Below are positions 6,291 through 59,694 of a stretch of DNA of 64,000 nucleotides, in pieces. Made by a program: the position numbers and the translations under genes. Origin of the DNA: Lytechinus pictus (Eukaryota); NCBI RefSeq assembly GCF_037042905.1, contig NC_087245.1, forward strand, positions 17,486,001 through 17,550,000, read 5' to 3'. Numbering within the stretch: position 1 is the first letter of the stretch; each line of letters begins with the position of its first letter. The notes under the pieces are model-generated. The model was not told where the DNA came from and did not search any database. It worked only from the letters and a program-made list of their open reading frames with translations.

Positions 6291-6314
6291 ATGAAAAAAA
6301 CATCAGTAATCATG
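6291..6314 (+). CDS. copy 1 exon 1 coding part (MKKTSVIM)
   Basis: Acceptor ctgctctcag at 6271-6280, ATG at 6291, donor gtaagc at 6315; identical in all three copies. Confidence 0.6.
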
Positions 6315-9300
6315 GTAAGCTCATATTTTTTATTATTTTTATTATTATCATTATCGCAGATTTCATATATGTCATTTTATCATGGACATAATTACGGTTT
6401 CATGATGTTTACTGTTACTTTTTAGGCCAATTTTCCATTTCCTTTCTTGGTCAATGAAAAAATGAACTAAAATGGTTGTCTGATATGTACATGTTGCACT
6501 CCTGTATTTATCACCCCCCCCTTATCTCTCTCTCCCCCTCTCTCTCTCCCCCTCCCTCTCCCTGACTCCTTCCCCCTCTCTCTCTCTTTCCCTCTCTCCC
6601 CCCCCCCTCTCTCTCTCTCTGTCATGTTGTTTTGGAAGCAAGCTATACCTTATAAATATATTGAATTGAATTGAATTTATTCAAACCAGTCAAAGGAGAA
6701 CAAAGTACAAACAAAATAAATGGTTACATTATAAAGAACTGAAACAAATGACAGGTTTGGGACCCCAAAGAAGCACAGCTTGTAATCAGGGGCCCCTGCA
6801 TATGGTATTTTACTCAAACATGGAATAACTATGAGAAGAAGAAGAAAAAAAGGTATTTAAAGATCACAACAGGAACATTACCCACACGCAAGCATACACA
6901 CACTCACACAGACACACGCAGACATTCACACTCCGAACATGTCACCCCAGGTGCAACTAACACCTAATCTTAAATTTATCAAGTAGGTATTTATGACATA
7001 ATTTCTTAAACCGAGACAGGGTACTGCTACTTCTTATACCAGAAGGATTTCAATGTAGCATAAATTCTAGCAAAGGGTTGGTGAATATGATGTCTCTGAC
7101 GTGTGTTATAATTATGAATCTTAGAATTAACCACAAAAGTTTCTTGTAAAAAAGAACAATGCAGGGATTGGTATTTATACATGAAAATAACACAATTCAG
7201 CAAGACCATTTCATTAAATGGTAACATATTCAACTGCAAAAAAAGCGGGAAACTTGGAGCCAGATAATTTGAATTTGTTACATATCTTATAGCTTTCTTT
7301 TGAAGAACTTGTAGTTTACGTACATGAGTCCTAAATGTATTCCCCCAAGCAATATTGCAATACATTAAATGTGGCACAATTAGAGCATTATATAAAAAAA
7401 ACAATGTTCGTTGACTAGGTAAGAAATATCTTACTTTTGACATCACACCAACATTACGAGATACTTTAGAACATACATTATTAAGGTGATGATTTCATGA
7501 CAAGTATTCATCAACTGTGACACCAAGAAATTGCACACTTGAGCTGAATTCAATTTGTCGACCACCAACTATTATTGGATCTATATTATCAATGACCCTC
7601 TTTCCCTTTGTTCTAAATAAAACACATTTCGTTTTACTTGTATTCAGTAACAGCTTATTACAACAAAACCAGGCAAAACATGACAAATTTCAGTATTTAC
7701 CTCCCGAATAAGACTTTGCAAGTTCTTATGAGGCAGGGGCCGCGGAACGGTTTTCAAAGTGGGGGGCTGAGCCAAAAGTGGGGGGCTGACCATGCTAAAA
7801 ATCACAATCATATGGTCATTTTTACGTTTTTGTACACGGGTTTGGAAAAAAGTGGGGGGGGGGGGTGTTACACCCACAAATGTAATAATCGCCCACAAAT
7901 GTAATAACGCCCACAAATGTAATAACACTTTACCCACAAATGTAATAACGCCCACAAATGTAATAACACTTTACCCACAAATGTAATAATTTTGATCGCC
8001 CACAAATGTAATAATGACTTTACCCACAAATGTAATAAATTTGAAGGGAATTTTGGCGAATCCGTTCTAAACTGAAATCCTATAGTAATACGTTCATATA
8101 GAACAAATGTGCAAGGTCTTTTTTTCCAGACCCGGTTAATAAAGAAAGTATAATATAATCCAAAGTCTTTTCTTCCAGACCCAGTTGTTTCAATAATTAT
8201 AATATAAGTTCAAAGTCTTTTTTCCAGACCAAGTTGTTAAAAAAATTATAGTATAAGTCCAAAGTCTTTTTCCAGACCCGGTTCTTTAAAAAATTATAAT
8301 ATAAGTTCAAAGTCTTTGTTCCAGACCTGGTTGTTTAAAAAATTATAATATAAGTCCAAACTAAGATATGATAATGATATTCCAGTGGAATAAAAATGAG
8401 AATCGAGCTTAGTCTTTTTCCAGACCCAGTTAATTAAAACTGGTGGAATTAGTGTCTTTGTTGTTGTTTTCACTTATACGGCGCATATTGTGAATATATG
8501 CGCTAAGAGTAAATTGAGAATCAAGCATAGTCTTTTCTCCAGACCCGGTAACTAAAAACTAAAACCCTATAGTAATGTGTTCGTATAGCACAAAAGTCTT
8601 TTTTCCAGACCCGGTTAATTCAAAAATTATAATATAAGTCCAAACTAAAACAACAAAACAAAGACCTATGGTGTAGTCTTTGCTCCAGACTCAGTTATTT
8701 CAAAATAGGAAATTATAAGAAACAATAAAAACAAACAAACAATATCAACAAACACTCCACAATATCATTGATGTAGAATAACGTTGTTGTTGTTGTTATT
8801 GTTATCTTGGGTTTTAAGGTGCATATCATTCAGATATGAACATTTACGCCTATGATTAATTTGTCGTTTTCGTGGTATGCATTATCACAGGGTTTTGATA
8901 GTTTAGAAGATGCTGGGGTTAAGTTTTAAGATTAAAGTTTCGCTTAATTTGTATTTTTCAGAGAACTGGGTTAGGGGTAAAGACAACACTCTAAACCTAA
9001 GCATTTTAACTGGGCTCAATTTTGAAATTTGGTCTTAGATTTTTTTTTCAATATTTCTTTATTTTTTTAATAACCGGGTCTAGACGAAAGACTAAGCATA
9101 CTACTCGTGTTATTCCACAGGAATAAGAATATGACAAAGTCTTGTGTTCTTAAGACTGTTTGAATTATTTTTTAAATGACTGGGTCTGGAATAAAGACAA
9201 CGCTCTAAACATGTGCTTTTCTACATGGTCTTAATTTGGAGGATTGTTGGTTCTTAGATTCGTTGTTGGGGTTGGGTTTTATTGCTTTTTTATTCTTGAA

Positions 9301-12300
9301 ATAACTGTGTCTGGAGGAAAGTCTACAATCGATCTTCATGTTATTCCACAGTAATTAGATTATTGGGTATTCGTTTTAGAATATTTGTAAAAACTATCTT
9401 TTTTTTCTTCAAATAATAACCAAGTCTGGAGAAAGGATGTTTGCGTTACCCATGCATTATTACAATGTTTTGTAGGGGTCTTAGTATTATAAAAAAAAAA
9501 CAGGGTGCGGGGAAAATACATATTTTTACACCCAGTAAGGGTGTAACTTTTGAAGATTGGTCTTAGATTTGAACTGTTGAAGTTTTTTAATTCATTTTTT
9601 TAATAACCGGGTCTGGAGAAAAGAGTACGTTTTAAAACTCGTGTTATTCGAATATGATTATAGTCTTACGTTAGAAGATTTTTTTTTTGTAAATTGATTT
9701 AATGATTAGGTCTAGAATAAAGACAATCCTCTAAACCTCTTTTTAAAACAGGTTTTTAGGTTGAAGGATTGTTTGGTCTTAGATTTGGAGTTTTCTTATT
9801 ATTACTGTTAGCGTTATTTAAAAAAAAATTAACTGGGTCTGGCTGAAAGACTATGCTATATGTCCATGTTATCCAGCATTAATAAGATTATTGGGTCTTT
9901 ATACTGTTTTTGTTGTTGTTGTATTGTTATTCATAATTTTCGAATAACAGGGTTTGGAGAAAAGACTATGCTCGATTTTCATTTTTATTCCACTGGAATA
10001 TTATTATGGTATCTTTAATAGTTTGGACTTATATTATAATTTTTGAAATAACTGGGTCTGGAAAAAAGACTTTGGACTTATGTTGTAATGTTTGAAACAA
10101 CCGGGTCTGGAAAAAGACTTTGGACTTATATTTTAATTTTTGAAACAACCGGGTCTTGAAAAAAATACTTAATTTAGACTTATGTCATAAATGTTTAATT
10201 ATCCAGGTTTGGAAAAAAGACTTTGCACTTTTGTGCTATATCACAAATGGTGCTTGGTACACTAAGAAATTCTAGAATTCAAAGTACCGAAAAACTTGTT
10301 AAAACGATATCCCCTCTTGTTAGAATGACTTTCTTTTATATAATATCTCATAGATCGTCGATCAACAACCTTATCGTTTTCGGGAAGTAATCCCCCTATT
10401 GTTTGCTGATATCTTATTCCTCAGTTTTTTGTTTCATATGTATTTAAATGTTTTTTTTTTTCATAGAAAAAAAAAGGAATGAATATACAAGAAATAATAA
10501 AAAAAAGTAATAAAAAAATAATAATATTAAATAAAATTGTTACCCTACTTTACATACAGTGGGTGGCCAAAATAGTCAATCGTGACTTATTGCCATATAA
10601 AAACAAGGAATGGAATGGATATGAGCGCATTATTATAAGGATTTAGTTTTTAGTTTTAAGTAACCGGGTGTGGAGAAAGACTACGCTTGATTCTCAATTT
10701 ACTCTTAGCGCATATATTCACAATACGCACTGTGTAAGTTCAAACAACAACAAAGACATTAATTCCATCAGTTTTAATGAACTGGGTCTGGAGAAAAGAC
10801 TAAGCTCGATTCTCATTTTCATTTCACTGGAATATCATTATCGTATCCTAATTTGGATTTATTTTATATTTTTTTAAATAACCGTGTCTGGAAAAAAAAG
10901 ACTTTGGACTTATAGTATAATTTTTGAAACAACCGGGTCTGGAAAAAAGACTTTAAATTATATTATAATTTTTGAATTAATCGGGTCTGGAAAAAAAGAC
11001 TTTGCACTTTTGTGCTATATGAACGCATTACTATAGGATTTTAGTTTAGAACGGAATCGCCAAAAATCCCTTCAAATTTATTACATTTGTGGGTAAAGTG
11101 TTATTACATTTGTGGGCGTTATTACATTTGTGGGCGTTATTACATTTGTGGGTGCAACAGGGGGGCTGAAGCTCCCCAGCCCCCCCGGTTCCGCGGCCCC
11201 TGTGAGAAAGTAATAAACAGGTGTCATCAGCATATAAAGAATATGTAAGCAATTTGGAAGAATTAACAATATCATTAATATAAATTAGGAAAAGCAGCGG
11301 ACCAAGAACCGATCCTTGCGGTACTCCAAATTTAATATTTCTATATTCTGAGCTGACACCGTTGATAACTACAAATTGTGACTGGTTTTCTAGATAGCTT
11401 TTAAACCAGTTTAAAGCCATCCCACGAATGCCATAATATTCAAGTTTAATTAAGAGTATACTGTGATCAATGGTGTCAAAGGCTTTACTTAAGTCAAGGA
11501 ATGCACCAAGGCAAAATTTTCCATCATTCATAGCAGTGATAATCGTGTTATATATATATATATAAACAGTCTTGAAAACAAGTCCTTATTTTTATTAATG
11601 TTTGATTTATTTTACGGAAAATACAGAGAAATGATTTTGTATTCAGTTACGTCCATCATAATCGTCATGGAATTCTTGTTTGATAACTCTTTCTGCTTCT
11701 TTTAGTCTGTCGTATGCTCATCACAGAGTCTGCCTATTTTCCTGTTCCTCATTCCAGCGAGTTTCGTTCATGGTGGTAAGTTTGAATTTGATATTTTGAC
11801 CCTATTTTGTTATTACTTGTATTGACATGATTACAAACAAAACAGATCACATAATTACTGTAGACAACAAAGAAAAACAATATAGAAAAATAACTAAAAT
11901 AATAATCAGAATAACAATATCAATAAAAACATAAAGTGACCCTGATTTTATTCATACACTTTCTTCTTATAATATTTTTGCGATTTATAAATCGCGGTAT
12001 AATCTATGTGAAGAGTGGATACCATGCGCGACCAAAAAAAAAACACGTAAAAAGGATGTCTTTTTCAAGATAGGATACGTTACGTACGTAACATAATAAG
12101 GGTGTAAAAAACACTAAAACTATGATAGGGTATCTATTTCGCTAGGAAAGCTACGTGTTTCGGGTCAAATTTGCGGGGGTATAACAAAATTAAGACTAAA
12201 ATGTTTTATAAAGGATATAATTTTTGCCCCAACAGTCAACACTACGTGTGTTTAGAGTACGATTTGCGCGCAGGGGCGTCGATCCATTTTTTCAGATGGG

Positions 12301-15782: not shown

Positions 15783-15838
<56 letters not shown>

Positions 15839-18800
15839 GTATGTGTGTGTGTGTAATTATGTTAAACTCAATTGTGTCTGCCCCCCCCCCCACCTCTGAG
15901 GAGAGATTTCAGCACCCCCACTGAAAAAATCGTTCCCAGGTCCCTGTCTCGGCCCCCCCCCCCCCCAGTGGCGTACCTAGGATTTTCCACAGGGGGGCAA
16001 AAAAGGTCTTTCAAGCTCGTCAGGGGGGCAGGGATACGTCCTTTGCATGGGTTGTGGCTCGTCACGGGTTGGCGGAGCAAAAAAGGGGGAAAAAGGAAAG
16101 AAAGACAAAAAAGCTGAAAAATGAATAAAGGAGGGAAAAGGAGGGAAAAGAGAGGAGAAAAAAGCAGTGGAGGAAGACGAGTGAATAAAATAAGATGAGG
16201 GGAAGACTTGGAAAATAAAAAGAATCTTTCATGCCACTACATAAATTTTTTGCTTGCGCTTCGAGCTCGCATTATCTTGTTCAATATGGAGTTTAAATAT
16301 CAAGTTTGGAAGTCAATATACAAAACATATTTCACCTCGGAAATCGAACTTTTATTATTTCGTATGATTTATAAATTAATTTTTATAAAGTGCTCTTTAA
16401 AAATGTCAGTTTTATGGTCTGAATATTAACATTTTCTGCTCGCGCTGCGCGTTCGTAAAATTTTTATTTTTCAGGTACCTATTATTTTCGTGTATTCCAA
16501 AAATTTTCAAAATATCCCTTTTCAGGTCTGATTGTCAAAACGTATCAGCTAGCGCTGCACGCTCGCATTTTTATTGGCGAGTTATGTATGTCTCAATATT
16601 GATTATACTATTAAAAAAAACTTAAATCCCCTTTTCATGACAGTTTATAAAAAAATTTGGCTCGCGATTTGCGCTCGCATTAATGGTTACGATATATTAA
16701 CTGATGCATCCTATTTATAATTACAGAAGTGCTTGAAATGTCCGGTTTTCAGGCCATAATATCATCAGATTTCGCACCCTCATTAGGCATTAATTTTGTT
16801 TCATCTCGCGCTTAGCAAGGGGAATAGGAAGATAGTCATCATTTTGTAAAAGAAAGTCAATGCATAACATATAATACACAGTATATAAACAAATCGCCAA
16901 TGTTTGGGTATAAAATGGATCAATGAAAATTAAAACATATACACGCGATTGAAATTATTTGAAAAAAGGAAAAAAAAATGATCATAACAATAATAAAAAA
17001 GCAGAGTAAATAGACAACAGTTTATTTAAAATGAATAAACCTATGAAGCAAGAACCTCGAGAATGAATTGCTTCAAAATCTTCAAAGCTTGTTGGGCTCC
17101 CAGGGACAGGAGAAAGCAATGACGTCTATCGGTGCATGGAAAATTCAATACAAAAGATGGTTGATGGGCCAGGCCTGGGAATGTCTCTCTCACACACTGA
17201 CCCTCAAATACGAACACTCTCAAAACCATCAACACAAGCACCAACCCGCCCCTCCCCCTCCTCTCCCTCTCTGCAACAGACCCAGCCAGAAGGGTACAGC
17301 AGACTGCCTCACACCCAATCCCGCCCAGTCATCATTTTCATATGCATGTCCTAAGGATGTCCGGTCCTATGTTAAAACTCAATGTGATAATAATGTGTGA
17401 TCCTTATCCACCTCACAATTTTCCTACAAAGTTAAGTTCATACTTCAATACTTTACATATTTAAAAGAAATATTCGGGGAAACGGATAAACGATCAAAAT
17501 TACCGTCTTGTCGATTTTTTTCACAACACAGTTGCTGAATTCAAAGAGCTTTGCGACCCACACCCTTTATCATGTAAGAACATCAATCTATCTGGAGGGA
17601 GATCGATTCAACTCATTCCAAGATTAGCATCAAAATTAAACGATCCTGAACCAGTTCTGGTAAAACTCCCATCTTGGCGCCATGTTGTCTGTGTTTTGCC
17701 GAAAAGAAATGGTGAGTGCATAAAAACAATCTTCTACAGATATTTTGGACATGATAGGCACATTGGCGGCGGAAACCAAACAATTTAGGGGGACCACCAA
17801 AAATTTTTGACAAGCAAAAAAAAGTTATATATCAACCAAAATTTTAGGGGGGACCGACAAAATTTTTTGACAAGCAAAAAAAAAAGGTCATCAACGAAAA
17901 ATTTAGGGGGGGATCGTCCCCCCACCTCAAATTTAGGGGGGACACGTCCCCCCGTCCCCCCCCCCCCGCTTCCGCCGCATATGGGGCTTTGTCTTCTTAT
18001 ATCATAAGATTTCGCACAATTATCATTGTAAGGGGCGGTAAAGTATTTAAATAATTACCTGTGGTGAAAAGGATGGAAATAAAAGTATTTGCTAGGCTAT
18101 TTAGATTACAGTTGCTCATTTCACCTTCCTTTAGATGGGTATAATTAGAACCGGTTCCCTCAAGCCATTTGGCGCATGTTCCTGTTCTTATAATATGCTA
18201 AAGAGATACTGTAACCGAGCAAATTGCTTTATTGCACCGAATATGCAAACGTCTATACATGTTATTCATTGGCAGCGGAACGGTTTTTGAAAGGGGGGGG
18301 GGGGCTGAATTACAAGCGCAAAATCGCAATCATGGTCATTTTTGTGTTTTTGTACACGGTTTTGGAAAAGCCCCCAGCCCCCCCCCCCCCCCCCCCCCGG
18401 TTCAGTGAGCCCTGTTAAACTGTAAGTGTGGAAGGGTCTGGTTAATTAAAGACTTCATTATTAACTGTTTCCCCTTGTTTGTCTTTTATTTCGGATCGTG
18501 CTTTCCTACTATATCTTTTGCGATTCGTATTGACTGCATCCTATGCAGTCTGCTTCCTCTTCTTGAACCATGGACCGTCTTTTGCAGTGTTTCGTAAATA
18601 TCTTATCGAGAATAGTATTTCTATACAATGTGCCTTTACACTATCTTCTATAGGCCGGCCAGACCGGATTCGTTAATGTTTTTGCTCTCTTCCATCATCA
18701 TGATCATGTGTCCATGTTTCTACTACACGAAGTTCTGTCCCAACACAATCACCATCCGTAAATAGTTTTTTAATTGGCATTATTATATCGTCTTTGTATT

Positions 18801-21800
18801 ATTATGTCAATATCGTAGAGACTCCTACGGATGCATCACCACCACTAGAAACTCTCGATGGAGGAAGTTCGACAACTTCGCCAGAAATTTCATCCAGTGG
18901 ATCAACTGAAGCTTCGTCAGAACAAGCAATGACCCCAATGACAGGCTCTTCAACTACTCCATCAAAACCTACGACCAATGGTAAAACAAGCCCCCAGCCC
19001 CCCTTCTCGGTTCCGTGCCCATAATAATCTGTAAAAGCTCCATGGTTAAAGTTATATGGTCTGATAACACTTCCATAATGATTTTCCTCGTTTGTCCTTT
19101 ATGTCGGATCATGCATTCCTCCTAACTCTTTTGCAGTCTTCTTCCTTTTCTTGAACCATGGATCATGTTTTTCATTGTTCCTTTAATGTCTCATCGAGAA
19201 TGGTACTGCTATCAATGTTTCTTCTAGACCAGACCGGTTTTGCTAATGTTTTTGCTCTCTTCCATTCATCTATGATCTTCCATGTTTCTCCTACACGAAG
19301 TTCTGTCCCAACACAATCACCATCGGTAATTGTTTTTTTATGTCAATATCGTATAGATACTCCCATGGATGCATCACCGCCCCAAGAAACTCCTGGTGGA
19401 GGAAGTTCGACAACTTCACCAGAACTTTCTTCCAGTGGATCAACTGAAGCTTCGTCAGAACAAGCAATGACCCCAATGACAGGCTCTTCAACTACTCCAT
19501 CAGAACATACAACGGACGATGCAGCGACAACTTTGTCACACCCTACAACAATTCCTTCTACGGAGGCTTTACCTGAAACCACAACAAAAGGAACTTCAGG
19601 TGTGAATTCGTGTAAGATGCTCTATTCAATGGGGCATCAAACAAGTGGTGTCTATGCCATCTCTCCTAGCGGTGTGGGACTGACCGATGTCTACTGCGAT
19701 ATGACCACCGACAACGGAGGGTGGACAATCTTCCAGGTACGTTCCGCCAGATTCTCGGTGTGAAATATTATAATATTTTCTGGATATGACAAAATCTATC
19801 AATTTTTTTTGTTTTATTTTATCGCATTTTTTCCCTTTTCTTTTCTTTTTCTTTTTTCTTTCTTTATAAGGAACTTTCGCTCTATCCACCATATCTGACC
19901 TCTTCATGATTTATAATAGGCCTGAGTAGAATTTTGTAGGCTTGCTCGCTTCGCCCGCTTACAAATTTTCTGTAATATTCCAATGTACCCAAACTCAACC
20001 CTCTCTTTTGTTTTATCACGCTCATTATTCGACAATATTTTCATTGATTTATTTTCATATATCACATCCTTCACAATAATAAAATGCATACAGAAACGTT
20101 ATGACGGATCTGTGGATTTTTACCGCAATTATAACGAGTATGTTCGTGGATTTGGTGACGTCGAGGGCGAATACTGGTTGGGATTAGACCAACTCTACTT
20201 ACTTGCTAAAGATGGAGTCGAACTCAGAATCGATATGGTTGATTACGATAACAATCCATTCTACGCTCATTATGGCAGTTTTAGCATTGGGAGTACCAAC
20301 ACCAAGTAAGGTTCTTACAATTTTCCTTCGCTATATTTTTTTTTTTGCAGAATTTTCTGCATTTATTGTAAAGTCAAAATAAATTTACAATACATAAACA
20401 TAATCGTAGTATGACATTAAAGTACATTGAAATGTGACAAATTTATAGCAGTGTGATAACAAAATTCAGACATGAATACAATTTAAGGATAAGACAAAGT
20501 AGTGAAAAACAAATGCAGTGGCAAACTATATAAGCAAAATAAATGCTTGAGTAATAGCAGCCAAAATATATATAGAGAGAGCGTATGGAAAACGTTACAT
20601 TTTGGAAAAGCTGCAGTTTCATTTTGTAATTTATCTAAAATCTTCTCTATCAGATGACACCACGATATATTTTGTGCATGCTTGAGCGCAAAACGACATG
20701 TTTTATCAGGGTGACGAGAAATGGCTTGCGCCATAATGAAGGAAATGGGCAATGTGAAAGTAACCGACTGATAAGGACTTAAAATCAACTGATTTGCTTT
20801 TAAGAACTTTTCACATACTACTTATTCTTAATCATGCATTGACAATAGAAAACTTAAAAAATATACTTCGTGTATTCACATGCGTAATTTTGACAGCTTT
20901 CTCAAAATGAAACGTTTATCATTCATCAAATTTTTATTTTTGTTTATATTGCTTATAATTCTACATTACAATACCTTTCTTTAACATGTTAAGAATGTCT
21001 AATAACCCAGTTATTTTGATGATCAAAAGAGAGGTTGTGTGTCTTGTAACATTTCTACTAACTACCGAACCAACGGCAACGGTAATTATTAACCCTAATC
21101 GTCCCCGGGTAATTTGAGTCTTGTCACTCCCGGGTCATTATACCCCCCCCCCCCCGCTCGTAATCGCGATATCTGCGCGATGGTGGAAAATGACGGTTGC
21201 ATCTTAGCCAACTTTCACTATCTATATTATCAATTTAACTATGTTAATTTGTGCATGAAATTAGAATTTGGGGGTAAATCTATCGATAAAGCCATTGAAA
21301 ATGGACAAGGAATAACAAAGATATGACATTATATGGATTTGCATTATTTCGGTGAAACAGTTCTATACACGTCTTCATGAATATTCAATGAGTATAGACC
21401 GATAATGTCATATCCCCACTTCTTCTTTTGTATTTTATGGCATGAAATTATGTTTATTCATTTTTTCTTTAAGAACAAAAATTAAAATGGATAGACAATT
21501 GATATAATGCATGAGATAGTCATGGCTGCAACTTATTTTATCGTGATAAGAATATATAATACACACATGTATGAAAATATGAAATAAATATGATTTCATG
21601 TAATAACATAAAAAGGGAAAGTGGGGATATGACATCATCAGCCCACCTACTGAATATTCATGCAACGTTCATATAACTGTTTCACAATATTGCTGAATTT
21701 TACTATAGGCAAATATACTTAGATATAATAATTTTCAACCCGGAGTAACCCTTTATTCTGATGTTGATTACATTTTCAATGTAATGCTTGTTTAAATTCA

Positions 21801-22365
21801 TTTTAAAGTAAATGAATAAAGATATTAATGAATAAATTTGAAGAAAAAATAGATAAAATATAATGACGTGACAAAAAAATTATGGATTACAAAATAATAT
21901 TTACACACGGAGCATTTTTTAACTTAGGGGCCCTACGAAAATCAGAAGTAAAAATGAAAGTGCTGATACTTCAGCTACTACGTCAGACATATTTTCATTA
22001 TATTTTCTCTTCAATCGCAATCTTGAATTTACATGACTGTTTTAAGGTTCTATATAGTCTTAGACTAAATTCAATTTAATGTATGTATTTACTATCTTCA
22101 ATAAAGCTACAGAATCGTGTTTTCATCATATACCGGTACTGCAGGAGAAGGGCTAGATGCAGCCAACGGACAAGCCTTCTTAACTTATGACAGTGGTGGA
22201 TCAACGAATAATTGTGCTTCTCGGTACCATGGGGCGTGGTGGTATAACAACTGTTATACAGCCAACTTGAATGGGGTACACGGACTCCAAAATGATTTGC
22301 AAGGGATTGTTTGGGATTGGCCTGACACAAAATACATGAGAGCTACAGAAATGAAGTTAAGATGA
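6291..22365 (+). CDS. FReD gene copy 1: secreted fibrinogen-related-domain protein with mucin-like stalk (ficolin/tachylectin-5/MFAP4-like FReD), 428 aa; join(6291..6314,11706..11775,17532..17711,18819..18980,19357..19736,20094..20305,22107..22365)
   Basis: Seven exons with GT/AG boundaries and compatible phases, 1287 nt in total. Signal-peptide-like start MKKTSVIMSVVCSSQSLPIFLFLIPASFVHG. FReD motifs: SCK..[45 protein letters not shown], NC...GAWWYNNCYTANLNG, TEMKLR. The same exons are conserved in the paralogues. Confidence 0.85.
7734..11202. mobile_element. hAT-like MITE (CAGGGGCCGCGGAAC ends) inserted in the LINE RT
   Basis: TIR caggggccgcggaac / gttccgcggcccctg; tgag duplicated on both flanks. 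Confidence 0.75.
7866..11159. mobile_element. 3.3 kb foldback-type non-autonomous element with TGT...ACA ends
   Basis: Termini tgttacacccacaaatgtaataa / ttattacatttgtgggtgcaaca. Outer tandem cccacaaatgtaataa repeats and inner ~57 bp ccagacccggtt repeats are mirrored at both ends. Inserted in a poly-G run. Confidence 0.8.
11706..11775 (+). CDS. copy 1 exon 2 (hydrophobic signal-peptide core)
   Basis: tttag acceptor, gtaagt donor; encodes SVVCSSQSLPIFLFLIPASFVHG; conserved in copies 2 and 3. Confidence 0.7.
12013..17430. mobile_element. cluster of nested non-autonomous DNA elements in copy 1 intron 2
   Basis: Absent from copies 2 and 3. TIR pair gagtggataccatgcgcgacc (12013) / ggtcgcgcatgatatccactc (13576-13596), several G/C-run TIR pairs, and GCGAGCGCGAAGCGCGAGC arrays. 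Confidence 0.75.
13391..13551. mobile_element. palindromic MITE with TTA TSD (PIF/Harbinger-like)
   Basis: ~60 bp TIR taccttggtcacatttgctctacggcggcc... / ...ggccgccgtagaacaaatgtgaccatggta, flanked by tta on both sides. Confidence 0.8.
17532..17711 (+). CDS. copy 1 exon 3 (unrecognised 60-aa Cys-containing domain)
   Basis: cacag acceptor, gtgagt donor, 180 nt, phase 1-1; VAEFKELCDPHPLSCKNINLSGGRSIQLIPRLASKLNDPEPVLVKLPSWRHVVCVLPKRN. Confidence 0.75.
17761..17983. mobile_element. hAT-like MITE in copy 1 intron 3
   Basis: cattggcggcggaa ... ttccgccgcatatg; absent in copies 2 and 3; same family as 26218-26546. Confidence 0.65.
18819..18980 (+). CDS. copy 1 exon 4 (Ser/Thr/Pro-rich stalk module)
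   Basis: cgtag acceptor, gtaaaa donor, 162 nt, phase 1-1; ETPTDASPPLETLDGGSSTTSPE...PTTN. Confidence 0.7.
19357..19736 (+). CDS. copy 1 exon 5 (second stalk module plus FReD start)
   Basis: tatag acceptor, CAG|gtacgt donor; ends [16 protein letters not shown]. Confidence 0.9.
20094..20305 (+). CDS. copy 1 exon 6 (FReD middle)
   Basis: atacag acceptor, gtaagg donor; [32 protein letters not shown]... Confidence 0.92.
20336..20570 (-). mobile_element. short poly(A)-tailed retro-insertion (3' end only)
   Basis: T-run at 20336-20346 followed by tttatt (reverse AATAAA); absent from the copy 2 intron. Confidence 0.5.
22107..22365 (+). CDS. copy 1 exon 7 (FReD C-terminal P subdomain)
   Basis: aag acceptor (an in-frame cag alternative lies 6 nt downstream); YRIVFSSYTGTAGEGL...GAWWYNNCYTANLNG...EMKLR then TGA. 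Confidence 0.9.
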
Positions 22366-29956: not shown

Positions 29957-29965
29957 CAGGTCAAC

Positions 29966-36144: not shown

Positions 36145-36168
36145 ATGAAAAAAACATCAGTAATCATG
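36145..36168 (+). CDS. copy 2 exon 1 coding part
   Basis: ATG AAA AAA ACA TCA GTA ATC ATG | gtaagc. Confidence 0.6.
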
Positions 36169-39100: not shown

Positions 39101-42100
39101 TTTATGTCGGATCATGCATTCCTCCTAACCTTTTTGCAGTTAGGTATCGCGATTTTGCACGATTCTTATTGACCCAATCCTGTGCAGTCTTCTTCCTTTT
39201 CTTGAACCATGGATCATGTTTTTCATTGTTCCTTTAATGTCTCATCGAGAATAGTACTGCTATCAATGTTTCTTCTAGACCAGACCGGTTTTGCTAATGT
39301 TTTTGCTCTCTTCCATTCATCTATGATCTTCCATGTTTCTCCTACACGAAGTTCTTTCCCAACACAATCACCATCGGTAATTGTTTTTTTATGTCAATAT
39401 CGTATAGATACTCCCATGGATGCATCACCACCCCAAGAAACTCCTGGTGGAGGAAGTTCGACAACTTCACCAGAACTTTCATCCAGTGGATCAACCGAAG
39501 CTTCGTCAGAACAAGCAATGACCCCAATGACAGGCTCTTCAACTACTCCATCAGAACATACGACAGACGATGCAGCGACAACTTTGTCACACCCTACAAC
39601 AATTCCTTCTACGGAGGCTTTACCTGAAACCACAACAAAAGGAACTTCAGGTGTGAATTCGTGTAAGACGCTCTATTCAATGGGGCATCAAACAAGTGGT
39701 GTCTATGCCATCTCTCCTAGCGGTGTGGGACTGACCGATGTCTACTGCGATATGACCACCGATAGCGGAGGGTGGACAATCTTCCAGGTACGTTCCGCCA
39801 GGTTCTCGTTGTGAAATGAATCTATCTGATGTTTATGTTTTATTAAGATGGTCAATATTTTTGCTTAATCGCATCTTTTTTTTCGTTTTTCTTTTCTTTT
39901 CTTTTTTTAAAAGAACTTTTGCTCTATCCACCATTTCATTCTGGCCTCTTCATCATGTTAATATAGGCCAAATAAGTAGAATTTTGTAGACTTGCTCGCT
40001 TCGCCCGCTCACAATTTTTCTAAAATATTCCAACGTATCTAAACTCAACCTTCTCTTGCACGCTCACTATTCGATAATTTTTTTTCACATATCACATCCT
40101 TCACAATAATAATATGCATACAGAAACGTTATGACGGATCTGTGGATTTTTACCGCAATTATACCGAGTATGTTCGTGGATTTGGTGACGTCGAGGGCGA
40201 ATACTGGTTGGGATTAGACCAACTCTACTTACTTGCTAAAGATGGAGTCGAACTCAGAATCGATATGGTTGATTACGATAACAATCCATTCTACGCTCAT
40301 TATGGCAGTTTTAGCATTGGAAGTACCAACACCAAGTAAGGTTCTTACAATTTTCCTTCGCTATAATTATAGAGAGAGCGTATGGAAAACGTTACATTTT
40401 GGAAAAGCTGTCAAAATTACGCTTATTAATGAAGTATCATTGTGTAATATCTCTAAAATCTTCTCTATTAGATGACACCACGAGATATTTTGTTCATGCT
40501 TGAGCGCAAAACGACATGTTTTATCAGGGTGACGAGAATGGCTTGCACCATAATGAAGGAATGGGCAGTCAAATCAAATGATTTGCTCGAGTTATTAAGA
40601 TCTTTTCACATACTATTTATTCTTGATTAGTACAGGATAGAAGAGGCATAACATTGTTTTTACATATATATTATATTTTTTGATGGTTTATTGTCAATTT
40701 TAGAGTGCTGATTGCGAATCTGAATGATGCCACTCGTGTAACCTTGAGCATTTTCCGCAAATTGGCAAAATCCAATATGGCCGCCAAAATATGCAAATTA
40801 CCCATGGAAATCATAAAAATTGCCCGCACATTGGCAACAAAATGCATGAAATTGTGTGGCAGGAGTGAAATACTCGCTGAAAAAATAATTTTTGACAAAA
40901 TATCTATTTTCTGGATCATAATGGCCGCCATAGGCCTCTGTATACTCTATTATGTACAACATGAATAGGGAAAACTTCACAAAAAATGAGCACTAAACTG
41001 CAAGAAATCGTGATCTATGAACGAAGTTCTGTATGCAAATCGTCATTACTAACGAGATATATCATTTATTATTTCATGTATGGGAACATTTCTGTATTTT
41101 GATATTTAAAATAGCCGCCACTGGCCAAAACAGTATTATGTACAATGGCAAAGGGGGCCAAAAAAACCCACAAGAGTGAGCACTAAAATGCATATTATTA
41201 AGATAAACGAGTGGAATACTGACTAAAAACATAATTGTTAGCGAAATTTATCATTTAATATGCCATGTATGTGATAAATGTTGTATTTTGATATTCAAAA
41301 TTGCTGCCTAAGACCCTAACAGTATTATGTACAATGAGAAAGAGGACCAAAGAAATTACAAGAGGTGGCACTAAAATGCATATGTATGTGATAAAGTTAC
41401 GTAATACTGTCTAAAAAAAACCATAATGAATATTCGTAGTACACGTAAATGGAGTAGATCTCCAACGAAATATAGTTTGTGTTAAATACTGTATTTTGAC
41501 TTTCAAAATGGCCGCCATAGACATTGACTGTATTATATATAATGCGAACTGGGAAACTAATATTCACAGGAGTGAGCACCATAAATGTACGTTATAGTGA
41601 TCCATGAGTAAAATATTGCCTGAAAGCATAATTTCTAACAAGATATATAATTTATTCTGCCAGTTAGGTGACAAATACTGTATTTTAAAAGTAAAAATGG
41701 CTACTACAGGCCCTTACGGTATATTATGTACCATGTAAATGGAAAAACATGATTTCAACAGATTTTGGCTTTGCTTGACTGAATGGTGTTGTATGAGTGA
41801 AATATTGTCTGAAAACATCATTTATAACAAGATATATCATATCTTGTGTAATTTAGGTGATAAATACTGTATTTAAACATTCAAAATGGCCGTCATATGC
41901 CCTTTTGTGAAAATTATCTGTCCACATTCAAATTGACGATAAGGGCCTATGATGGCTATTTTCAATTTCAAAATGCAGCATTTTCAACTTAATTACAGAA
42001 GATATGATATATCTCGGCAGAAACCATGGTTTTAGACAATATTTCACCCTTACATCACAATTATATGCAATATTTATAGTCAAGCAAAGCCAAATTCTGT

Positions 42101-45100
42101 CAAAATTATATGTCACATGTTCCTATGTACATAATAATTTTAGGACCTATGGCAGCAATTTTGGATTTCAAAGTATACAGCATTTATTACCTCCATGACC
42201 AATATGTGATGTATGTAGTTAGAAATCATGTTTAAGACAATATTTTTAATCGTACATAACAGTTACATGCATTTTATGATTCTCACTCTTGTGAAAATTA
42301 GTTTGGTTAGGGCTTGTAGCGGCTATTTTGAATGTCAAAATACAGTATTTATCACCTACATGGCAGAAGAAATGCTATAATTCCTTCAAAATTATGTTTT
42401 CAAATAATATTTTACTCATACAACAGGATTATATGGATTTCATAGTCAAGCAAACCCAAATTCTTACAAAATTATATGTCCCCATTTACATTCTAGATAA
42501 TACTGTTAGGGCCTTTATGGGCCAATTTTGAATTTCACAATACAGCATTTATCTCATGCATGACAAAAGAAATGATATGCCTCGCTAGAAAACATGTTTT
42601 CAGACAAAATTTTACTCGTAGATCACAATTACATGCATTTTATGTTTCTTACTCTTGTGAAAAATAGTTTCTCCATTTGCATTGTACATAATAAATATAG
42701 GGCCCATGGCGGCCATTTTGAATGTCAAATTATAGCATTTATCACATACATGGCATAATGAATAATATCTTTTGTTAACAATTCTGTTTTTAGTCAGTAT
42801 TCCACTCGTTTATCTTAATAATATGCATTTTAGTGCTCACTCTTGTGAATTTTTTGGCCCCCATTGCCATTGTACATAATACTGTTTGGGCCAGTGGCGA
42901 CTATTTTAAATATCAAAATACAGCAATTTTCCCATACATGACATAATATATATATCTCGTTAGTAATGGTGATTTGCATACTGTACTTCGTTCATATATC
43001 ACGATTTCTTGCGGTTTAGTGCTCATTTTTGTGAAAATGAGTTTTCCCTATTCATGTTAAAAATAATAGAGTTTACAGAGGCCTATGGCGGCCATTTTGA
43101 ATATCCAGAAAATAGATATTTTGTCAAAAATTATTTTTTCAGAGAGTATTTCACTCCTGCCACAAAATTTCATGCATTTATTGCTAATGTGCGGGCAAGT
43201 TTTATGACTTTCATGGGTAATTCACATATTTTGGCGGCCGTATTGGATTTTGCCAATTTGTGGAAAATGCTCAAGGTTACACGAGTGACATCATTCAGAT
43301 TCGTAATCAGCACCCTCGAATTGACAAGCAACCATAAAAAAATATTGTATATATGAAAAAACAAGGTTCGTCAATTTTCTATGGGGCCAATCCTGGACTA
43401 AATCATGCTTAAAACAGCGGACAATAGACATTTTAAAAATCTATTTTGGGTATTCACATACGTGATTTTGACAGCTTTTTCAAAATGAAACGTTTATCGT
43501 TCATCAAATTTTGATTTTTGTTTATATTGCTTATGTAATTCTACATTACACATTACTACCGAACCAACAGCAACGGTAATTATCATTTCCCTAATCATCC
43601 CCGGGTAATTTGTGCCTTGTCACTCCCGGGACACCCCCCCCCCCCAGCTCGTAATCGCGATATCTGCGCGATGGCGGAAAATGACGGTTGCATCTAAGCA
43701 AACTTTCACTAAATCTATATTATCTTGTCCCATACACGGATTAACTATTTTTTTAAACTATGTTTTTTTATGGAATTTTTCGTCGATACTTCAAAGTGCT
43801 ATTTAAATCGAATGTTACAAGGGCCGCGAAACCGAAGGGGGGGGGGGGCGGGTGTTGCTTCATCTCTCCCAGTATTTAACCATTTTCACAAAGAGTGAAA
43901 ATGACCAACGATTTTATGCATGCCCCCCCCCCCCCCTCGCTTTCCATATCGTTCTGCAGCCCCTCTGTAAAAAGATACAGTTACTAATTTTGACTAGAAA
44001 CAGAGTTTACATTGGATTTGTGCATGAAATCACTTTTTTATAGCAAATTTGGGCCTAACAATAACCATGAACAGATGACCAATAAACAAATTACGATAAT
44101 TTAAGGGGTACTCCAGGCTGAAAATGATATGATTTGAAAAAGATTTAAAAAAAATAGACAAACAAAACACTGAAGAATTGTTTGAAAATGGACAAGGAAT
44201 AAAAAAGTTATGACATTATATAGATTTGCATTATTTCGGTGAAACAGTTCTAAACATGTCTTCATGAGTAGACCGATAATATCATATCCCCACTTGTTCT
44301 TTTGTATTTTTTTACATGAAAGTATGTTTATTCATTTTTTTCTTTAAGAACAAAATATAAAAGGATAGACAATTGATATAATATTTGAGATATTCATGGC
44401 TGCAACTTATTTTATAATGATAAAGATATATCACACACACATGTATGAAAATATGAAATAAATATGATTTCATGTAACAACATAAAAAGGTAAAGTGGGG
44501 AGGTGACATCATCAGCCCACCTACTGAATATTCATGCAACGTTCATATAACTGTTTCACAATATTGCTGAATTTTACTATAGGCAAATATACTTAGATAT
44601 AATAATTTTCAACCCGAAGTAACCCTTTATTCTGATGTTGATTACATTTTCAATGTAATGCTTGTTTAAATTTATTTCAAAGTAAATGAATAAAGATATT
44701 AATGGATGAATTGAAAAAAAATAGATAAAATATAATGACGTGACAAAAAATTAATGAATTACAAAATAATATTTATGCACGGAGCATTTTTCAACTTAGG
44801 GGCCCTACGAAAATAAGAAGTAAAAATAAAGGTGCTGATACTTAGAACCTCGGGTGCGATACGTCAGACATATTTTCATTATATTTTCTCTTCAATCGCA
44901 ATCTTGAATTTACATGACTGTTTTAAGGTTCTATATAGTCTTAGACTAAATTCAATTTAATGTATGTATTTACTATCTTCAACAAAGCTACCGAATCGGG
45001 TTTTCATCATATACCGGTACTGCAGGAGAAGGGCTAGATGCAGCCAACGGACAAGCCTTCTCAACTTATGACAATGACCATGATGACGGAATTGGTAATT

Positions 45101-45252
45101 GTGCTTCTCTGTACAAAGGGGGGTGGTGGTATAACAACTGTTATACAGCCAACTTGAATGGGGTACACGGACTCCAAAATGATTTGGAAGGGATTGTTTG
45201 GGATTACCCTAACCCAAAATACATGAGAGATACAGAAATGAAGTTAAGATGA
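36145..45252 (+). CDS. FReD gene copy 2, 481 aa; join(36145..36168,36582..36651,37118..37297,38246..38398,38822..38983,39408..39787,40124..40335,44988..45252)
   Basis: Eight exons with GT/AG boundaries, 1446 nt in total, open throughout. Has one extra stalk exon. The last exon (absent from the ORF track) reads YRIGFSSYTGTAGEGLDAANGQAFSTYDNDHDDGIGNCASLYKGGWWYNNCYTANLNGVHGLQNDLEGIVWDYPNPKYMRDTEMKLR*. Confidence 0.87.
36582..36651 (+). CDS. copy 2 exon 2 (signal peptide)
   Basis: ttcag acceptor, gtaagt donor; SVVCSSQSLPIFLFLIAVSFVHG. Confidence 0.7.
37118..37297 (+). CDS. copy 2 exon 3 (Cys-containing N-terminal domain)
   Basis: tacag acceptor, gtgagt donor, 180 nt open. Confidence 0.75.
38246..38398 (+). 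CDS. copy 2 exon 4a (stalk module)
   Basis: 153 nt, phase 1-1; 9 nt shorter than copy 1 exon 4. Confidence 0.7.
38822..38983 (+). CDS. copy 2 exon 4b (extra chimeric stalk module)
   Basis: 162 nt, phase 1-1; starts like exon 5 (DTPMDASPPQETPGGG) and ends like exon 4 (SEPTTN|gtaaat). Confidence 0.7.
39408..39787 (+). CDS. copy 2 exon 5 (stalk plus FReD start)
   Basis: 380 nt; ends VYCDMTTDSGGWTIFQ|gtacgt. Confidence 0.9.
40124..40335 (+). CDS. copy 2 exon 6 (FReD middle)
   Basis: 212 nt; KRYDGSVDFYRNYTEYVRGFG... Confidence 0.92.
40628..43400. mobile_element. Academ-like 2.8 kb foldback element in copy 2 intron 6
   Basis: Termini tagtacagga / tcctggacta; 3 bp TSD gat/aat; empty site ttcttaatcatgc at about 20825 in copy 1; long mirrored arms with ~175 bp subrepeats. 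Confidence 0.8.
44101..44628. mobile_element. Kolobok-like MITE, partial copy at about 21290-21755
   Basis: ttaaggggtactccaggctgaaaat ... attttcaacccgaagtaacccttta. Confidence 0.5.
44988..45252 (+). CDS. copy 2 exon 7 (FReD P subdomain with canonical-type FSTYDNDHD loop)
   Basis: aacaaag acceptor; open to TGA at 45250-45252. Confidence 0.9.
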
Positions 45253-52720: not shown

Positions 52721-53372
52721 ATGGCTCATAATAAGAAGTTGAAAACATCAAAGATCACTTCTTTTTTCAAGCACAATGAGAAAGAAGAACATGATGACGA
52801 ACAACCGTCTACATCAAAATCGGATGATGTCGGAGATAGGCCTGTTCTTCCTGAAGTTCAACCAGAAGAAAGTGCCGTTGAGGGTGATGGAGCATCTGAG
52901 GCGAAAGATGATGATGAAGCTGATGCCGGTTTTGACGACTGGGTTAGCCCCAATCACCCCCCTACTTCTTCCATTCCCGTAGTAGAAACTAAAACAGAAA
53001 ATTCTGTTTCAAGCCAAATGGTACCAAAGCTACCCCTGGATCCATTACGAACCCTCCCTGAAACGGGTACTGTGTTTCTACTGTGCACAGGCAGAAAAAC
53101 GCGGACTCTTGAAATTGGCCAAGAACAAAGAACCAGCATTTGTTTCAGTCGGCTTTTGTAATTGGAAAAAGGCATCACCCAGATTTGAGAGCCACAAGGC
53201 TTCAAATTGTCACAGAGTCGCAAAGGCAGCGATTTCCTTGAAACCTGAGGCTAAAATCGATGTCAAAATGGACGCCAACCGCCGTCAACAGCAGGAAACA
53301 GCCCAACGAGCACTGATGAAGGTCTTCAAGAGATTGCGATTCCTTCTGCGACAGGGTCTGTCATCAAGGCGT
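52721..53372 (+). pseudogene. hAT transposase N-terminal fragment with TTF-type zinc finger (ZMYM1-like/Tip100-type), frameshifted and truncated
   Basis: MAHNKKLKTSKITSFF... then a frameshift near 52995 to FQAKWYQSYPWIHYEPSLKRVLCFYC...FVSVGFCNWKK...FESHKASNCH...LRFLLRQGL; ends just before a (GT)n tract. Confidence 0.8.
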
Positions 53373-56300: not shown

Positions 56301-57484
56301 TAAATGAATTTTTTGTTTTTTAGCCTCCGGAAGCCATTTTGGGCGCCATCTTGGAATTTCCTGGTACCCAAGAACACTAATATTCACTCTAACTTGTATC
56401 AATAAATTATTTTACCCACTGGAACATGGAATATGTACCTAAATAGGATTCTAGGGTGGATAATGAGTGAGTTATATCCATTTTCAGTGAATGGCGGCCA
56501 TCTTGGACGCCATCTTGAAAATAACTACTTTCCCACATGCGGATTTTGGTAGATTTTTAGTATGTTATTCCTGAGGTCAAATAGTACAAAAAACAGTTGA
56601 AAAATCATTTGTTGCAATTTGTTCCGGGTCAAACCATATAATGAAATGATAGAAAAAGATGCAACCAAAATTAAACACAGACAACTCTGCTGAAGTATCA
56701 GCAACCGGTTTTTTTTTAAGAGTCGAGTATCGTTAATTAAGAATGCACGAAACCGCCCTTACAGGGCGAGATCTAATTGGTCATTTTGCGTAACCAAGAA
56801 AAACATTATTTACATAATATTACTCAGTCCGTGTCTCTTAGGGTTCAACACGTATCGGAAATGCTTTCTTTTGAAATTCATCTGCTGTTCGTATTTCAGG
56901 CTTCTTTGATATCATAAAATAAACTCAGAAATTGTCACAACAACTCTCTAAATGTAAACTGAAACTAATCAAACTAATTACTATGTCAGAGTTGTGTAAA
57001 GGGCCTATCCCATTCAACAAAATCTAAGGCAATATTTTTTTATTTTGCTTAAATCTGTTTGCCAGAGTGCACATATTGACTCTTATCCTCGGTAAACTTC
57101 AGCAAAAGTTGCCATAATTAAGCGAACCTTTAAATAAAATTCACAATTATCGTTTATACCATCACGACAACTTGATACTTTATATATAGTGTATACCAAT
57201 TTGATGAGCATCAATATCAAAGGCCAGAAATTGCAGAATAAATATAATATTCATGAACGTCTTTGTGATAGCTAATTATGTCCTTCATACAAACGTCCTT
57301 GGCTCGATGGCGTTATTCTCCCATGCAGCGGATGGGAGGCCTCGATATAAAATGTTGATATCATTACTGTAACAACGGCACATTCAGATGAACACATTCT
57401 TCATTCCGAGAGAGGAACTATACCTCTTTCACACTTTACGAAACTATTTGAAGATTTCCTTCTGCTGCTCTCAGGACTCGGTGC

Positions 57485-59694
57485 ATGAAAAAAACATCAG
57501 TAATCATGGTAAGCTCATACTTTCTATTATTATTATTATTACTATTATCTTTATTATTATTATCATTATCGCAGATTTCATATCCGTCATGAATTATCAT
57601 GGACATAATTACGGTTTCATGATGTTTACTTTTACTTCTTAGGCCAATTTTCCATTTCCTTTCTTGGTCAATAAAAAAAAATGAACTAAAATAGTTGCCA
57701 GTTATGTACACGTTGCACTCCTGTATTTGTCCCCCCCCCCCTCATCTCTCCATATATATATCTCTCTCTCCCTCCTTGAACAGTCTTGAAAACAAGTCCT
57801 TATTCTTTTTTAATGTTCGATTTATTTAGGGAAAATTTATTTTGTATTCAGTTACGTCCATCACAATCGTCATGGAATTCTTAATTGATATATCTTTCTG
57901 CTTCTTTCAGTCTGTTGTATGCTCATCACAGAGTTTCCCTCCCTTCCTGTTCCTCATTCCAGTGAGTTTCGTTCATGGTGGTAAGTTTGAATTTGATATT
58001 TTGACCCTTTTTTATTTGTATTGATTATCATGATTACAAACAGAACATCTCATAATTACTGTAGACAAAAAGAAAAACAACATAGAAAAAATAACTAAAA
58101 TAATAATCAGAATAACAATATCAATAAGAATATAAAGTGACCCTGTTTTTAATCATACACTTTCTTCTTATAATATTTTTGCGATTTATAAATCGCGGTA
58201 TAATCTGTGAAGAGAATGTAATGTTGGATTATAACATAGCCAATCCTTACTATCTTTTCAACAGTAAAGTAAATTGTGGAGAAAACACTCGGAATGATCA
58301 CGAATGTATCACAGATCCCGTGATCCCACTTTTATTTGTTGTAACTTCCAGTTTAGTTCATACTTCAGTACTTTACATATTTAAAAGAAATATTCGGGGA
58401 AACGCATAAACGATCAAAATTACCGTCTTGTCGATTTTTTTTAACAATACAGTTGCTGAATATCAAAAGAGCTTTGCGACCCAGACCCCTTATCATGTAA
58501 GAACATCACTCTATCTGGAGGGAGATCGATTCAATTCATTCGAAGATTAGCATCAACATCAAACGATCCTGAACCAGTTCTGGTAAAACTCCCATCTTGG
58601 CGCCATTTTGTCTGTGTTTTACCGAAAAGAAATGGTGAGTGCATAAAAACGATCTTCTACATATATTTTGGACATGATAGGCCTATGTCCCCTTACATCA
58701 TAAGATTTCGCAAAAATATTTTCTAGGCTATTTGGATTACAGTTGCTTATTTCACCTTTCTTTAGATGGGTATTATGACCGGTTCCCTCGAGCCATTTGG
58801 CGCATCTTCCTCCCGGATCTTCCTGTTCCTATAATATGCTAAAGAGATACTGTAACCGGCGTGTGGTTTATCGTGTTTAAGTATTTCTGGAGGAGCCGCA
58901 TCTGTTACAGGTGCTCTTCGAATTGTTATTTTTGTGTGACATTGTAGAGTTTTGCTTCTGACCAAATTGCTTTGTTGCACCAGATATGCAAAAGTCTATA
59001 CATGTTATTCATTGGCAGCGGAACGATTTTGAAAGGGGGAGGGGCTGAACATACACAAAATCGCAATCATGGTCATTTTTGCGTTTTTGTACAAAGTTTT
59101 GGGAAAAGTGGGGCTGAAGCCATGTTAATCTGTAAATGTGGAAGGGTCTGGTTAATTAAAGACTTCATTATTAACTTTTCCCCTTGTTTGTCTTTTATTT
59201 CGGATCGTGCTTTCCTACTATATATTTTGCAAAGAGCAATTTTGTACGATTCGTATTGACTGCATCCTATGCATTCTGCTTCCTCTTCTTGAACCATGGA
59301 CTGTGTTTTACAGTGTTTCGTAAATATCTTATCGATAATAGTACAATGTGCCTTTACACTATCTTCTATAGGCCGGCCAGTCCGGATTCGTTAACGTTTT
59401 TGCTTTCTTCCATCATCATGATCATGATATGTGTCCATGTTTCTACTACAAGAAGTTTTGTCCCAATACAATCACCATCCGTAAATAGTTTTTTAATTAG
59501 CATTATTATATCGTCTTTGTATTATTATGTCAATATCGTAGAGACTCCTACGGATGCATCACCACCACTAGAAACTCTCGATGGAGGAAGTTCGACAACT
59601 TCGCCAGAAATTTCATCCAGTGGATCAACTGAAGCTTCGTCAGAACAAGCAATGTCAGGCTCTTCGACTACTCCATCAGAACCTACGACCAATG
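57485..59694 (+). pseudogene. FReD gene copy 3, partial and probably pseudogenic; exons 57485..57508, 57911..57980, 58453..58634 (182 nt, +2 frameshift), 59542..59694; FReD exons not in window
   Basis: Exon 3 reads gaatatcaaaagagctt versus gaattcaaagagctt in copy 1, giving a premature TAG at 58548-58550. Homology to intron 4 stops at about 60354 at a TE insertion. Confidence 0.7.

Follow-up and report, generated by a model that had tools for sequence, protein, structure and literature searches.

A tandem array of stalked FReD genes in Lytechinus pictus

We examined a window of 64,000 nucleotides from the sea urchin Lytechinus pictus (RefSeq assembly GCF_037042905.1, contig NC_087245.1, positions 17,486,001 to 17,550,000; positions below are those of the window), which carries tandemly arranged genes for proteins ending in a fibrinogen-related domain (FReD). 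Self-BLAST revealed three same-strand (+), head-to-tail units whose start codons lie 29,854 and 21,340 bp apart; together with splicing by coordinates, this bears out the three paralogues described in a first-pass annotation of the window. Exons were joined at GT..AG sites by coordinates, and the open frames were translated. Copy 1 comprises seven exons (6291-22365, +) and copy 2 eight (36145-45252, +), and the two stop-free frames encode proteins of 428 and 481 amino acids, reproducing exactly the lengths given in that annotation. The copy 1 protein is letter for letter that of RefSeq XP_063953510.1, and the copy 2 protein equals XP_063955115.1 from residue 92 onward. Both have the same order of parts: a predicted signal peptide, a 60-amino-acid module with three cysteines, a Ser/Thr stalk and the FReD. 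In the self-comparison, copies 1 to 3 are separated by differing transposon insertions, and three tandem units that differ in this way cannot be just two haplotypes.

Spliced transcripts

Four of eight listed RNA runs were aligned, to copy 2 only, at 90% likeness. Contigs from run X1 contained GT..AG joints at five of the seven copy 2 introns, so spliced transcripts do exist, where their absence would have counted against the first-pass annotation, and one X1 contig spanned two copy 2 FReD exons without any difference. The exon 1-2 and exon 5-6 joints were absent among the matches listed, and intron 1 was unspliced in one X1 contig (36139-36610). In run X5, which carries another organism label, the module exon was spliced to the stalk. 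First mates in the raw-read runs X6 and X7 fell on the minus strand only, as most stranded libraries give for a plus-strand transcript. Because reads were placed at 90% likeness, the RNA joints support the model of the family, not that of copy 2 alone.

The acceptor of the last exon, at 22107 and 44988, is AAG with a weak pyrimidine tract, and the joint is still present in RNA. A candidate extra exon at about 37430-37510 was reassigned to intron: it contains stops, and its indel pattern differs in copy 1.

An intact FReD fold with a remodelled ligand site

The Pfam family Fibrinogen_C matched the translations of copy 2's three FReD exons and of copy 1's last exon. For the whole copy 1 protein, the match to PF00147 (E 7e-56) covered profile positions 4-219 and hence a complete C-terminal FReD. 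We modelled the structure with an alignment of 48 sequences; a single-sequence model had a mean predicted local distance difference test (pLDDT) score of 33. In the predicted model, FReD pLDDT was mostly above 90 and that of module and stalk almost wholly below 50. The best fold matches by Foldseek were L- and M-ficolin and FIBCD1, at about 40% identity.

In FIBCD1, the calcium ligands are Asp393 and Asp395, and the acetyl pocket consists of Tyr405, His415, Tyr431, Ala432 and Trp/Tyr443 (PMC3908420). We compared these positions in nine L. pictus sequences, two of 11 having been dropped as P-subdomain duplicates; the numbering was carried over via pigeon FIBCD1, and the loops align with gaps. 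The calcium-ligand Asp pair is kept in eight of the nine sequences and lost in copy 1, and Tyr405 is kept in seven. Of the Cys401-Cys414 pair, Cys414 aligned in seven sequences and appeared shifted by two residues in the other two, in this gapped alignment. His415, Tyr431, Ala432 and Trp443 were each kept in none of the nine. The designation of these proteins as lectins in the first-pass annotation was therefore not borne out. They probably do not bind the classical N-acetyl group, and their ligand could be another glycan or a protein. By sequence, they have the build of a recognition FReD without the complete pocket that marks acetyl-binding lectins.

Variation is concentrated in the P subdomain

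We found that the L. pictus models differ from one another very unevenly along their length. Across 11 models, pairs differed on average at 2.4% of amino acids over the opening FReD exon part, at 1.2% over the middle exon and at 6.5% over the initial 20 residues of the last exon; in the P subdomain that follows, predicted to bind the ligand, the figure rose to 25.5%, with 39 of 71 columns variable and nine distinct versions. The three-cysteine module differed by 8.5% among the nine sequences that have it. The variable columns of the P subdomain include the calcium loop and the loops of the S1 pocket, as defined in FIBCD1 and placed by alignment, and the motifs WWY, NLNG and EMKLR are kept in all 11 models. 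P-subdomain distance from the L. pictus models to the Lytechinus variegatus protein was 27%, about equal to the distance among themselves. The first-pass annotation had the array varying in its binding loop, which these figures support; with about 11 models and nine distinct P subdomains, the pattern is stronger than could be seen at that stage.

Between copies 1 and 2, the P subdomain carries 20 replacement changes and one silent change, corresponding to 0.127 differences per replacement site (pN; 20/157) and 0.026 per silent site (pS; 1/38). In the FReD core of the same two genes pN is 0.012, and their non-coding divergence ranges from 1 to 14%, mostly 2-5%. P-subdomain pN exceeded pooled synonymous divergence (11/256; p=0.003), divergence of the adjacent intron (p=0.001) and that of the intergenic spacer (p=2e-7), which suggests positive selection on the P subdomain. 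The replacement excess in the three-cysteine module was not significant (p=0.24). The low pS of the P subdomain argues against an old imported segment.

Some models combine similar tips with dissimilar front parts. XP_063961235 and XP_063961243 share one P type and differ in their front halves, and XP_063961210 and XP_063961219, which also have differing front halves, nearly share another. Among 120 informative site pairs, 32 were incompatible with a single tree by the four-gamete criterion. These mosaics suggest that last exons have been exchanged between copies, a form of exon shuffling.

The calcium loop also varied in RNA. At 45088-45095, X1 contigs show compensating -2/+2 and -1/+1 indels relative to copy 2, and this one run contains two differing variants of the loop. 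Put on copy 2, these indel patterns read NWSN, which occurs in two models, and ELGN, which occurs in none of the 11, with the proviso that the contig table might conceal further substitutions. Paired local frameshifts may be one route by which several calcium-loop residues change at once.

A probably recent expansion of a probably older architecture

A search with the cysteine module identified seven proteins among 23 candidates, six from L. pictus and one from L. variegatus. Cluster look-ups gave 11 L. pictus RefSeq models with a full FReD (isoform sets counted once) and one lacking the last exon, so that the family probably numbers about a dozen genes in this species. All of its L. pictus models are recorded on one 44.3 Mb contig. 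L. variegatus has at least one gene with two isoforms, a minimum because the count comes from cluster representatives. Automatic names such as angiopoietin-like, MFAP4-like and fibrinogen alpha-like mask the fact that these models are one family.

We placed the family in a tree of 36 rows, among them sequences of vertebrates, hemichordates and crinoids and two FReDs each from the sea cucumbers Apostichopus japonicus and H. leucospilota. A single clade on a long branch (support 100/100) united the 11 L. pictus models with one from L. variegatus and four from Strongylocentrotus purpuratus. Seven further S. purpuratus FReDs lay outside it, as did the rows from sea cucumbers, crinoids, hemichordates and vertebrates. 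Within the clade, the L. pictus rows cluster together (93/80), with copy 1 splitting off first, and L. pictus and S. purpuratus each have a separate multi-member group. At the start of one S. purpuratus model, 13 residues match the closing part of the cysteine module (9/13 identical, pairwise E 2e-5), and a further database protein with a close FReD has a long S/T/E/P stalk and a chimeric C-terminus. Expansion of the family looks recent, in keeping with the earlier suggestion that it is lineage specific. The same suggestion probably does not extend to the architecture: with four S. purpuratus models in the clade and partial relatives of module and stalk, the combination probably predates the Lytechinus-Strongylocentrotus split, as far as these partial models indicate.

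The amino-terminal module and the stalk

Copies 1 and 2 have a hydrophobic N-terminus and no later hydrophobic 19-mer above 0.66, features that predict secretion. The three-cysteine module has no Pfam family. A phmmer search over 1.84 billion representatives returned two matches to it, one from Lytechinus and one a wasp repeat protein, which we discounted as an artefact of its repeats; a search of the Atlas produced nothing usable, and AlphaFold assigned a pLDDT below 50 to nearly every residue of the module. Rfam yielded no match.

The stalk is built of phase-1 exons and contains two units in copy 1 (136 amino acids) and three in copy 2 (187 amino acids), in agreement with the variable unit number that had been claimed. 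Within copy 2, stalk exon 2 belongs to a duplicated unit of about 600 bp made up of exon and intron, as the self-comparison showed. Ser and Thr make up 44-45% of the stalk, Pro 12% and the residues LIVF 5%. It is acidic (D+E 13-14%, K+R 1%) and likely O-glycosylated.

A broken third copy and the surrounding repeats

Exon coordinates of all three copies are collected in Table 1. Copy 3 (57485-59694) is frameshifted, with a 2-nt insertion in exon 3 and stops behind it. The first-pass annotation gave an FReD to copies 1 and 2 only. We looked for FReD pieces behind copy 3 at 60300-64000 and found none within the window, so this holds to the window's end; the FReD of the gene itself may sit beyond position 64000. 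Copy 3 resembles copy 2 as far as 60354, where unrelated repeat DNA takes over, and a 152-bp repeat element, CAACGTTG-rich, lies just past this end, at 60374-61600. XP_063961235 reads the exon at 58453-58634 with an other-frame N-terminus, as the same 2-nt insertion predicts, and otherwise differs from copy 3; the frameshift may have been duplicated.

Table 1. Exons of the three FReD gene copies, in window coordinates
Feature	Position	Strand	Basis or remark
Copy 1 exon 1, coding part (MKKTSVIM)	6291..6314	+	matches XP_063953510 start
Copy 1 exon 2, predicted signal peptide core	11706..11775	+	best 11-residue hydropathy window from residue 19
Copy 1 exon 3, 60-aa module, 3 Cys	17532..17711	+	GT..AG model; no Pfam match
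Copy 1 stalk exon, phase 1-1 Ser/Thr/Pro unit	18819..18980	+	GT..AG model
Copy 1 last stalk unit and FReD start	19357..19736	+	Pfam match on copy 2 counterpart
Copy 1 FReD middle exon, conserved core	20094..20305	+	2 mismatches in 212 nt vs copy 2
Copy 1 last exon; variable P subdomain about 22168-22362	22107..22365	+	Pfam match; lacks both Ca-ligand Asp
Copy 2 exon 1, coding part	36145..36168	+	GT..AG model
Copy 2 exon 2, predicted signal peptide core	36582..36651	+	RNA contig joint 36650/37117
Copy 2 exon 3, 3-Cys module	37118..37297	+	both joints in X1; 3' joint also in X5
Copy 2 stalk exon 1	38246..38398	+	GT..AG model, RNA contigs
Copy 2 stalk exon 2	38822..38983	+	5' joint in RNA contigs
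Copy 2 last stalk unit and FReD start	39408..39787	+	Pfam; 3' joint in X1, X5, X6
Copy 2 FReD middle exon	40124..40335	+	Pfam; X1 contig, 0 differences
Copy 2 last exon; variable P subdomain about 45049-45249	44988..45252	+	Pfam; joint 40335/44988 in X1 and one X7 read
Copy 3 exon 1	57485..57508	+	GT..AG model
Copy 3 exon 2, signal peptide with two extra Pro	57911..57980	+	GT..AG model
Copy 3 exon 3, 2-nt insertion	58453..58634	+	frameshift leading to in-frame stops
Copy 3 stalk exon	59542..59694	+	GT..AG model

Several repeats interrupt the array. A 5-kb insertion in intron 1 of copy 1 (6555-11565) holds pieces of a long interspersed nuclear element (LINE; reverse transcriptase at 11046-11585, minus strand). 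An inverted-repeat element that carries 49-bp and 18-bp tandem units interrupts these pieces at about 7866-11159. Two related 53-bp tandem arrays, partly inverted copies, are inserted in the spacer of copies 1 and 2, at 24565-25428 and 31152-31970. The spacer between copies 2 and 3 contains a LINE fragment at 49310-50882, with a 327-amino-acid reverse-transcriptase open reading frame and a TGAAT tail, which is absent at the orthologous site near 33103. A 5.1-kb element at 51502-56582 has perfect 40-nt inverted ends, a 181-bp tandem array and broken open reading frames at 52712-53666 with a weak zf-C17orf113 match (E 0.018); our guess is that it is hAT-like. It lies inside an insertion upstream of copy 3 that is missing before copy 2.

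Interpretation

The reading to which we incline, with somewhat more confidence than doubt, is that these genes are a tandem-expanded sea-urchin family of predicted secreted, stalked FReD heads, likely diversifying to bind foreign, probably microbial, surface molecules. The array would grow by unequal crossing-over, phase-1 stalk exons would be gained and lost in frame, last exons would be exchanged between copies, and selection would act on the calcium loop and the ligand loops. Stalked heads with differing tips could then sample foreign surfaces. Two further steps are weaker. The heads might oligomerise via the FReD core or an unpaired cysteine of the three-cysteine module, a guess made by analogy: FIBCD1 heads assemble into tetramers (PMC3908420), and FBN30 of Anopheles into dimers and octamers that are disulfide-linked (PMC5561218). 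They might also act as agglutinins or opsonins in coelomic fluid or surface mucus.

A number of points weigh against a role in recognizing microbes. Tenascin-R, ficolin-2 and MFAP4 were almost tied in sequence scores, and four positions of the acetyl pocket are kept in none of the nine sequences compared. In tenascin and angiopoietin this P surface is a binding site for proteins (partly according to PDB titles). The divergence tests concern one gene pair, with regions picked after inspection, and within the P subdomain itself pS and pN did not differ significantly (p=0.083), there being one synonymous change. The mosaic pattern was observed in automatic RefSeq models. For genes in tandem arrays such models can be chimeras, as XP_054758016 is, and incompatible sites can also result from recurrent substitution. 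In X6 and X7, each of more than 1,200 million letters, FReD exon depth was about 0.2-1.3. We infer the immune role from the diversification pattern alone, and a paper on larval infection in L. pictus (PMC11688612) mentions no fibrinogen or ficolin genes in its available text and two supplements. Finally, echinoderm FReD proteins also act in skeleton and regeneration (PMC5460417, PMC5638244).

Three other explanations have to be considered. We think it unlikely that these are surface, mucus, adhesive or gamete-coat proteins with no part in pathogen defence, their variable heads recognising ligands of self or conspecific origin or shaping the microbiome. An acidic, S/T-rich stalk would suit such proteins, the remodelled acetyl pocket is compatible with them, and the strong depth differences among RNA runs fit tissue- or stage-restricted expression; rapid replacement in binding surfaces is, moreover, also typical of gamete-recognition proteins. 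However, many differently tipped paralogues in a single genome and a broken copy would fit recognition families that evolve by birth and death better than a one-to-one recognition of self.

It is distinctly unlikely, in our judgment, that the family instead consists of extracellular- or skeletal-matrix proteins like skeletal Frp, or of wound or regeneration fibrinogen-related proteins (FREPs) like those of the sea-cucumber tandem cluster. This explanation draws on the presence of FReD proteins in all three studied echinoderm skeletal proteomes (PMC5460417), on the use of frp as a marker of skeletogenic cells (PMC12588293), on 21 tandem FREPs that are up-regulated while the gut of A. japonicus regenerates (PMC5638244) and on tenascin-R and MFAP4 being among the best sequence matches. 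The tree speaks against it. Three S. purpuratus relatives of skeletal FReDs have been named (XP_783504, XP_011672460 and XP_011677319; PMC5460417); the two that we could place, XP_011672460 and the cluster of XP_011677319, belong to a different clade, and neither pair of sea-cucumber FReDs joins the family clade. Nor would a structural role predict hypervariable tips.

Very doubtful is a mostly neutral turnover of duplicates, in which gene conversion would keep the core uniform, relaxed constraint would let the last exon drift, and some database copies would represent haplotype duplicates or chimeric models: the inter-copy non-coding divergence of mostly 2-5% (a distance that alleles might also show where heterozygosity is high), the identical P subdomains in two model pairs, the calcium ligands lost in copy 1, the cysteine displaced in two models and the broken copy 3 are all consistent with it, but replacement divergence in the P subdomain exceeds silent and non-coding divergence where equality would be expected, and WWY, NLNG and EMKLR are kept in 11 of 11 models.

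The preferred reading of a diversifying recognition family can be taken further, to a proposal that we regard as rather unlikely. The array might be a second diversified germline recognition family beside Transformer, in which an almost invariant FReD scaffold would allow co-assembly between copies and the last exon would be an exchangeable "tip cassette." Recombination within the large last intron would shuffle this cassette, compensating micro-frameshifts would retune its calcium loop, and stalk exons would set reach. If this were true, individuals would differ in a combinatorial repertoire of non-acetyl-binding heads. L. pictus is genetically tractable, in that knockout and transgenic lines exist. 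A fixed scaffold with a sharply localised variable tip offers a clean test of how FReD ligand specificity changes, and so compact a family also tests for diversified soluble receptors of sea urchins beyond Transformer.

Relation to known systems

Tandem FReD expansions with defence roles are already known across invertebrates, and the L. pictus family is not a new class of system. The FREPs and sFReDs of Biomphalaria, the FBNs of Anopheles, such as FBN30, and the fibrinogen (FBG) proteins of oysters are likewise secreted, have a C-terminal FReD and belong to lineage-specific multigene families (PMC7588048, PMC5561218, PMC4346834). Biomphalaria has 73 FReD genes (PMC7588048), and FReD gene numbers in oyster are large as well (PMC4346834). 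In snail FREPs the FBG domain is conserved and the immunoglobulin superfamily (IgSF) part varies (PMC7588048), whereas in the L. pictus family the P subdomain varies on a near-invariant core. Mollusc FREPs in the strict sense have one or two N-terminal IgSF domains and a coiled-coil interceding region (PMC7588048); the L. pictus copies gave no Ig match in Pfam and, in a crude scan, a best heptad a/d hydrophobic fraction of 0.375.

Ficolins, FIBCD1 and tachylectin-5A have their fold in common with the L. pictus FReDs, in which the calcium Asp pair aligns in 8/9 sequences and the P-domain cysteine pair in 7/9. Unlike these proteins, the L. pictus copies have no collagen or transmembrane segment, and their pocket loops are shortened. 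The collagen-like region of ficolins is missing from both models, which contain no Gly-X-Y run of at least four and no PF01391 match. The first-pass claim that collagen, coiled coil and Ig are all lacking thus stood up to Pfam, Gly-X-Y and heptad scans of both models. Angiopoietins and ANGPTL proteins, to which an automatic RefSeq name refers, have an N-terminal coiled coil before the FReD; the stalk found here is instead S/T-rich, with its 5% LIVF. Pfam detected none of the EGF and FN3 repeats of tenascin in the L. pictus copies. The accessible sections of PMC11401434 report no tenascin in L. variegatus or S. purpuratus and note many FReD proteins in both, without description.

Among echinoderms, the 21-gene cluster of A. 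japonicus is also a tandem FReD array; it is tied to regeneration, and its description, in the portion available, includes no stalk or tip hypervariability (PMC5638244). Skeletal Frp and other echinoderm skeletal FReDs also have a single FReD without collagen (PMC5460417), and their relatives named above, XP_011672460 and the XP_011677319 cluster, are outside the L. pictus family clade. We found no description of the family in the literature, in which subscription journals were thinly covered: five accessions and one locus identifier occurred in no paper, and PMC3342357, PMC1988830 and PMC13228809 mention FREPs, in their accessible text, for other animals only.

SpTransformer (Sp185/333) is also a clustered, highly similar and mosaic multigene family of sea urchins. 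The protein is unrelated, and its immune induction and binding have been demonstrated, whereas the L. pictus family is known from sequence and RNA joints. That family is real, expressed and undescribed, and what is new about it is the combination of an uncharacterised three-cysteine module, an exon-modular S/T stalk, a near-fixed FReD core, a hypervariable and apparently shuffled tip and a remodelled pocket.

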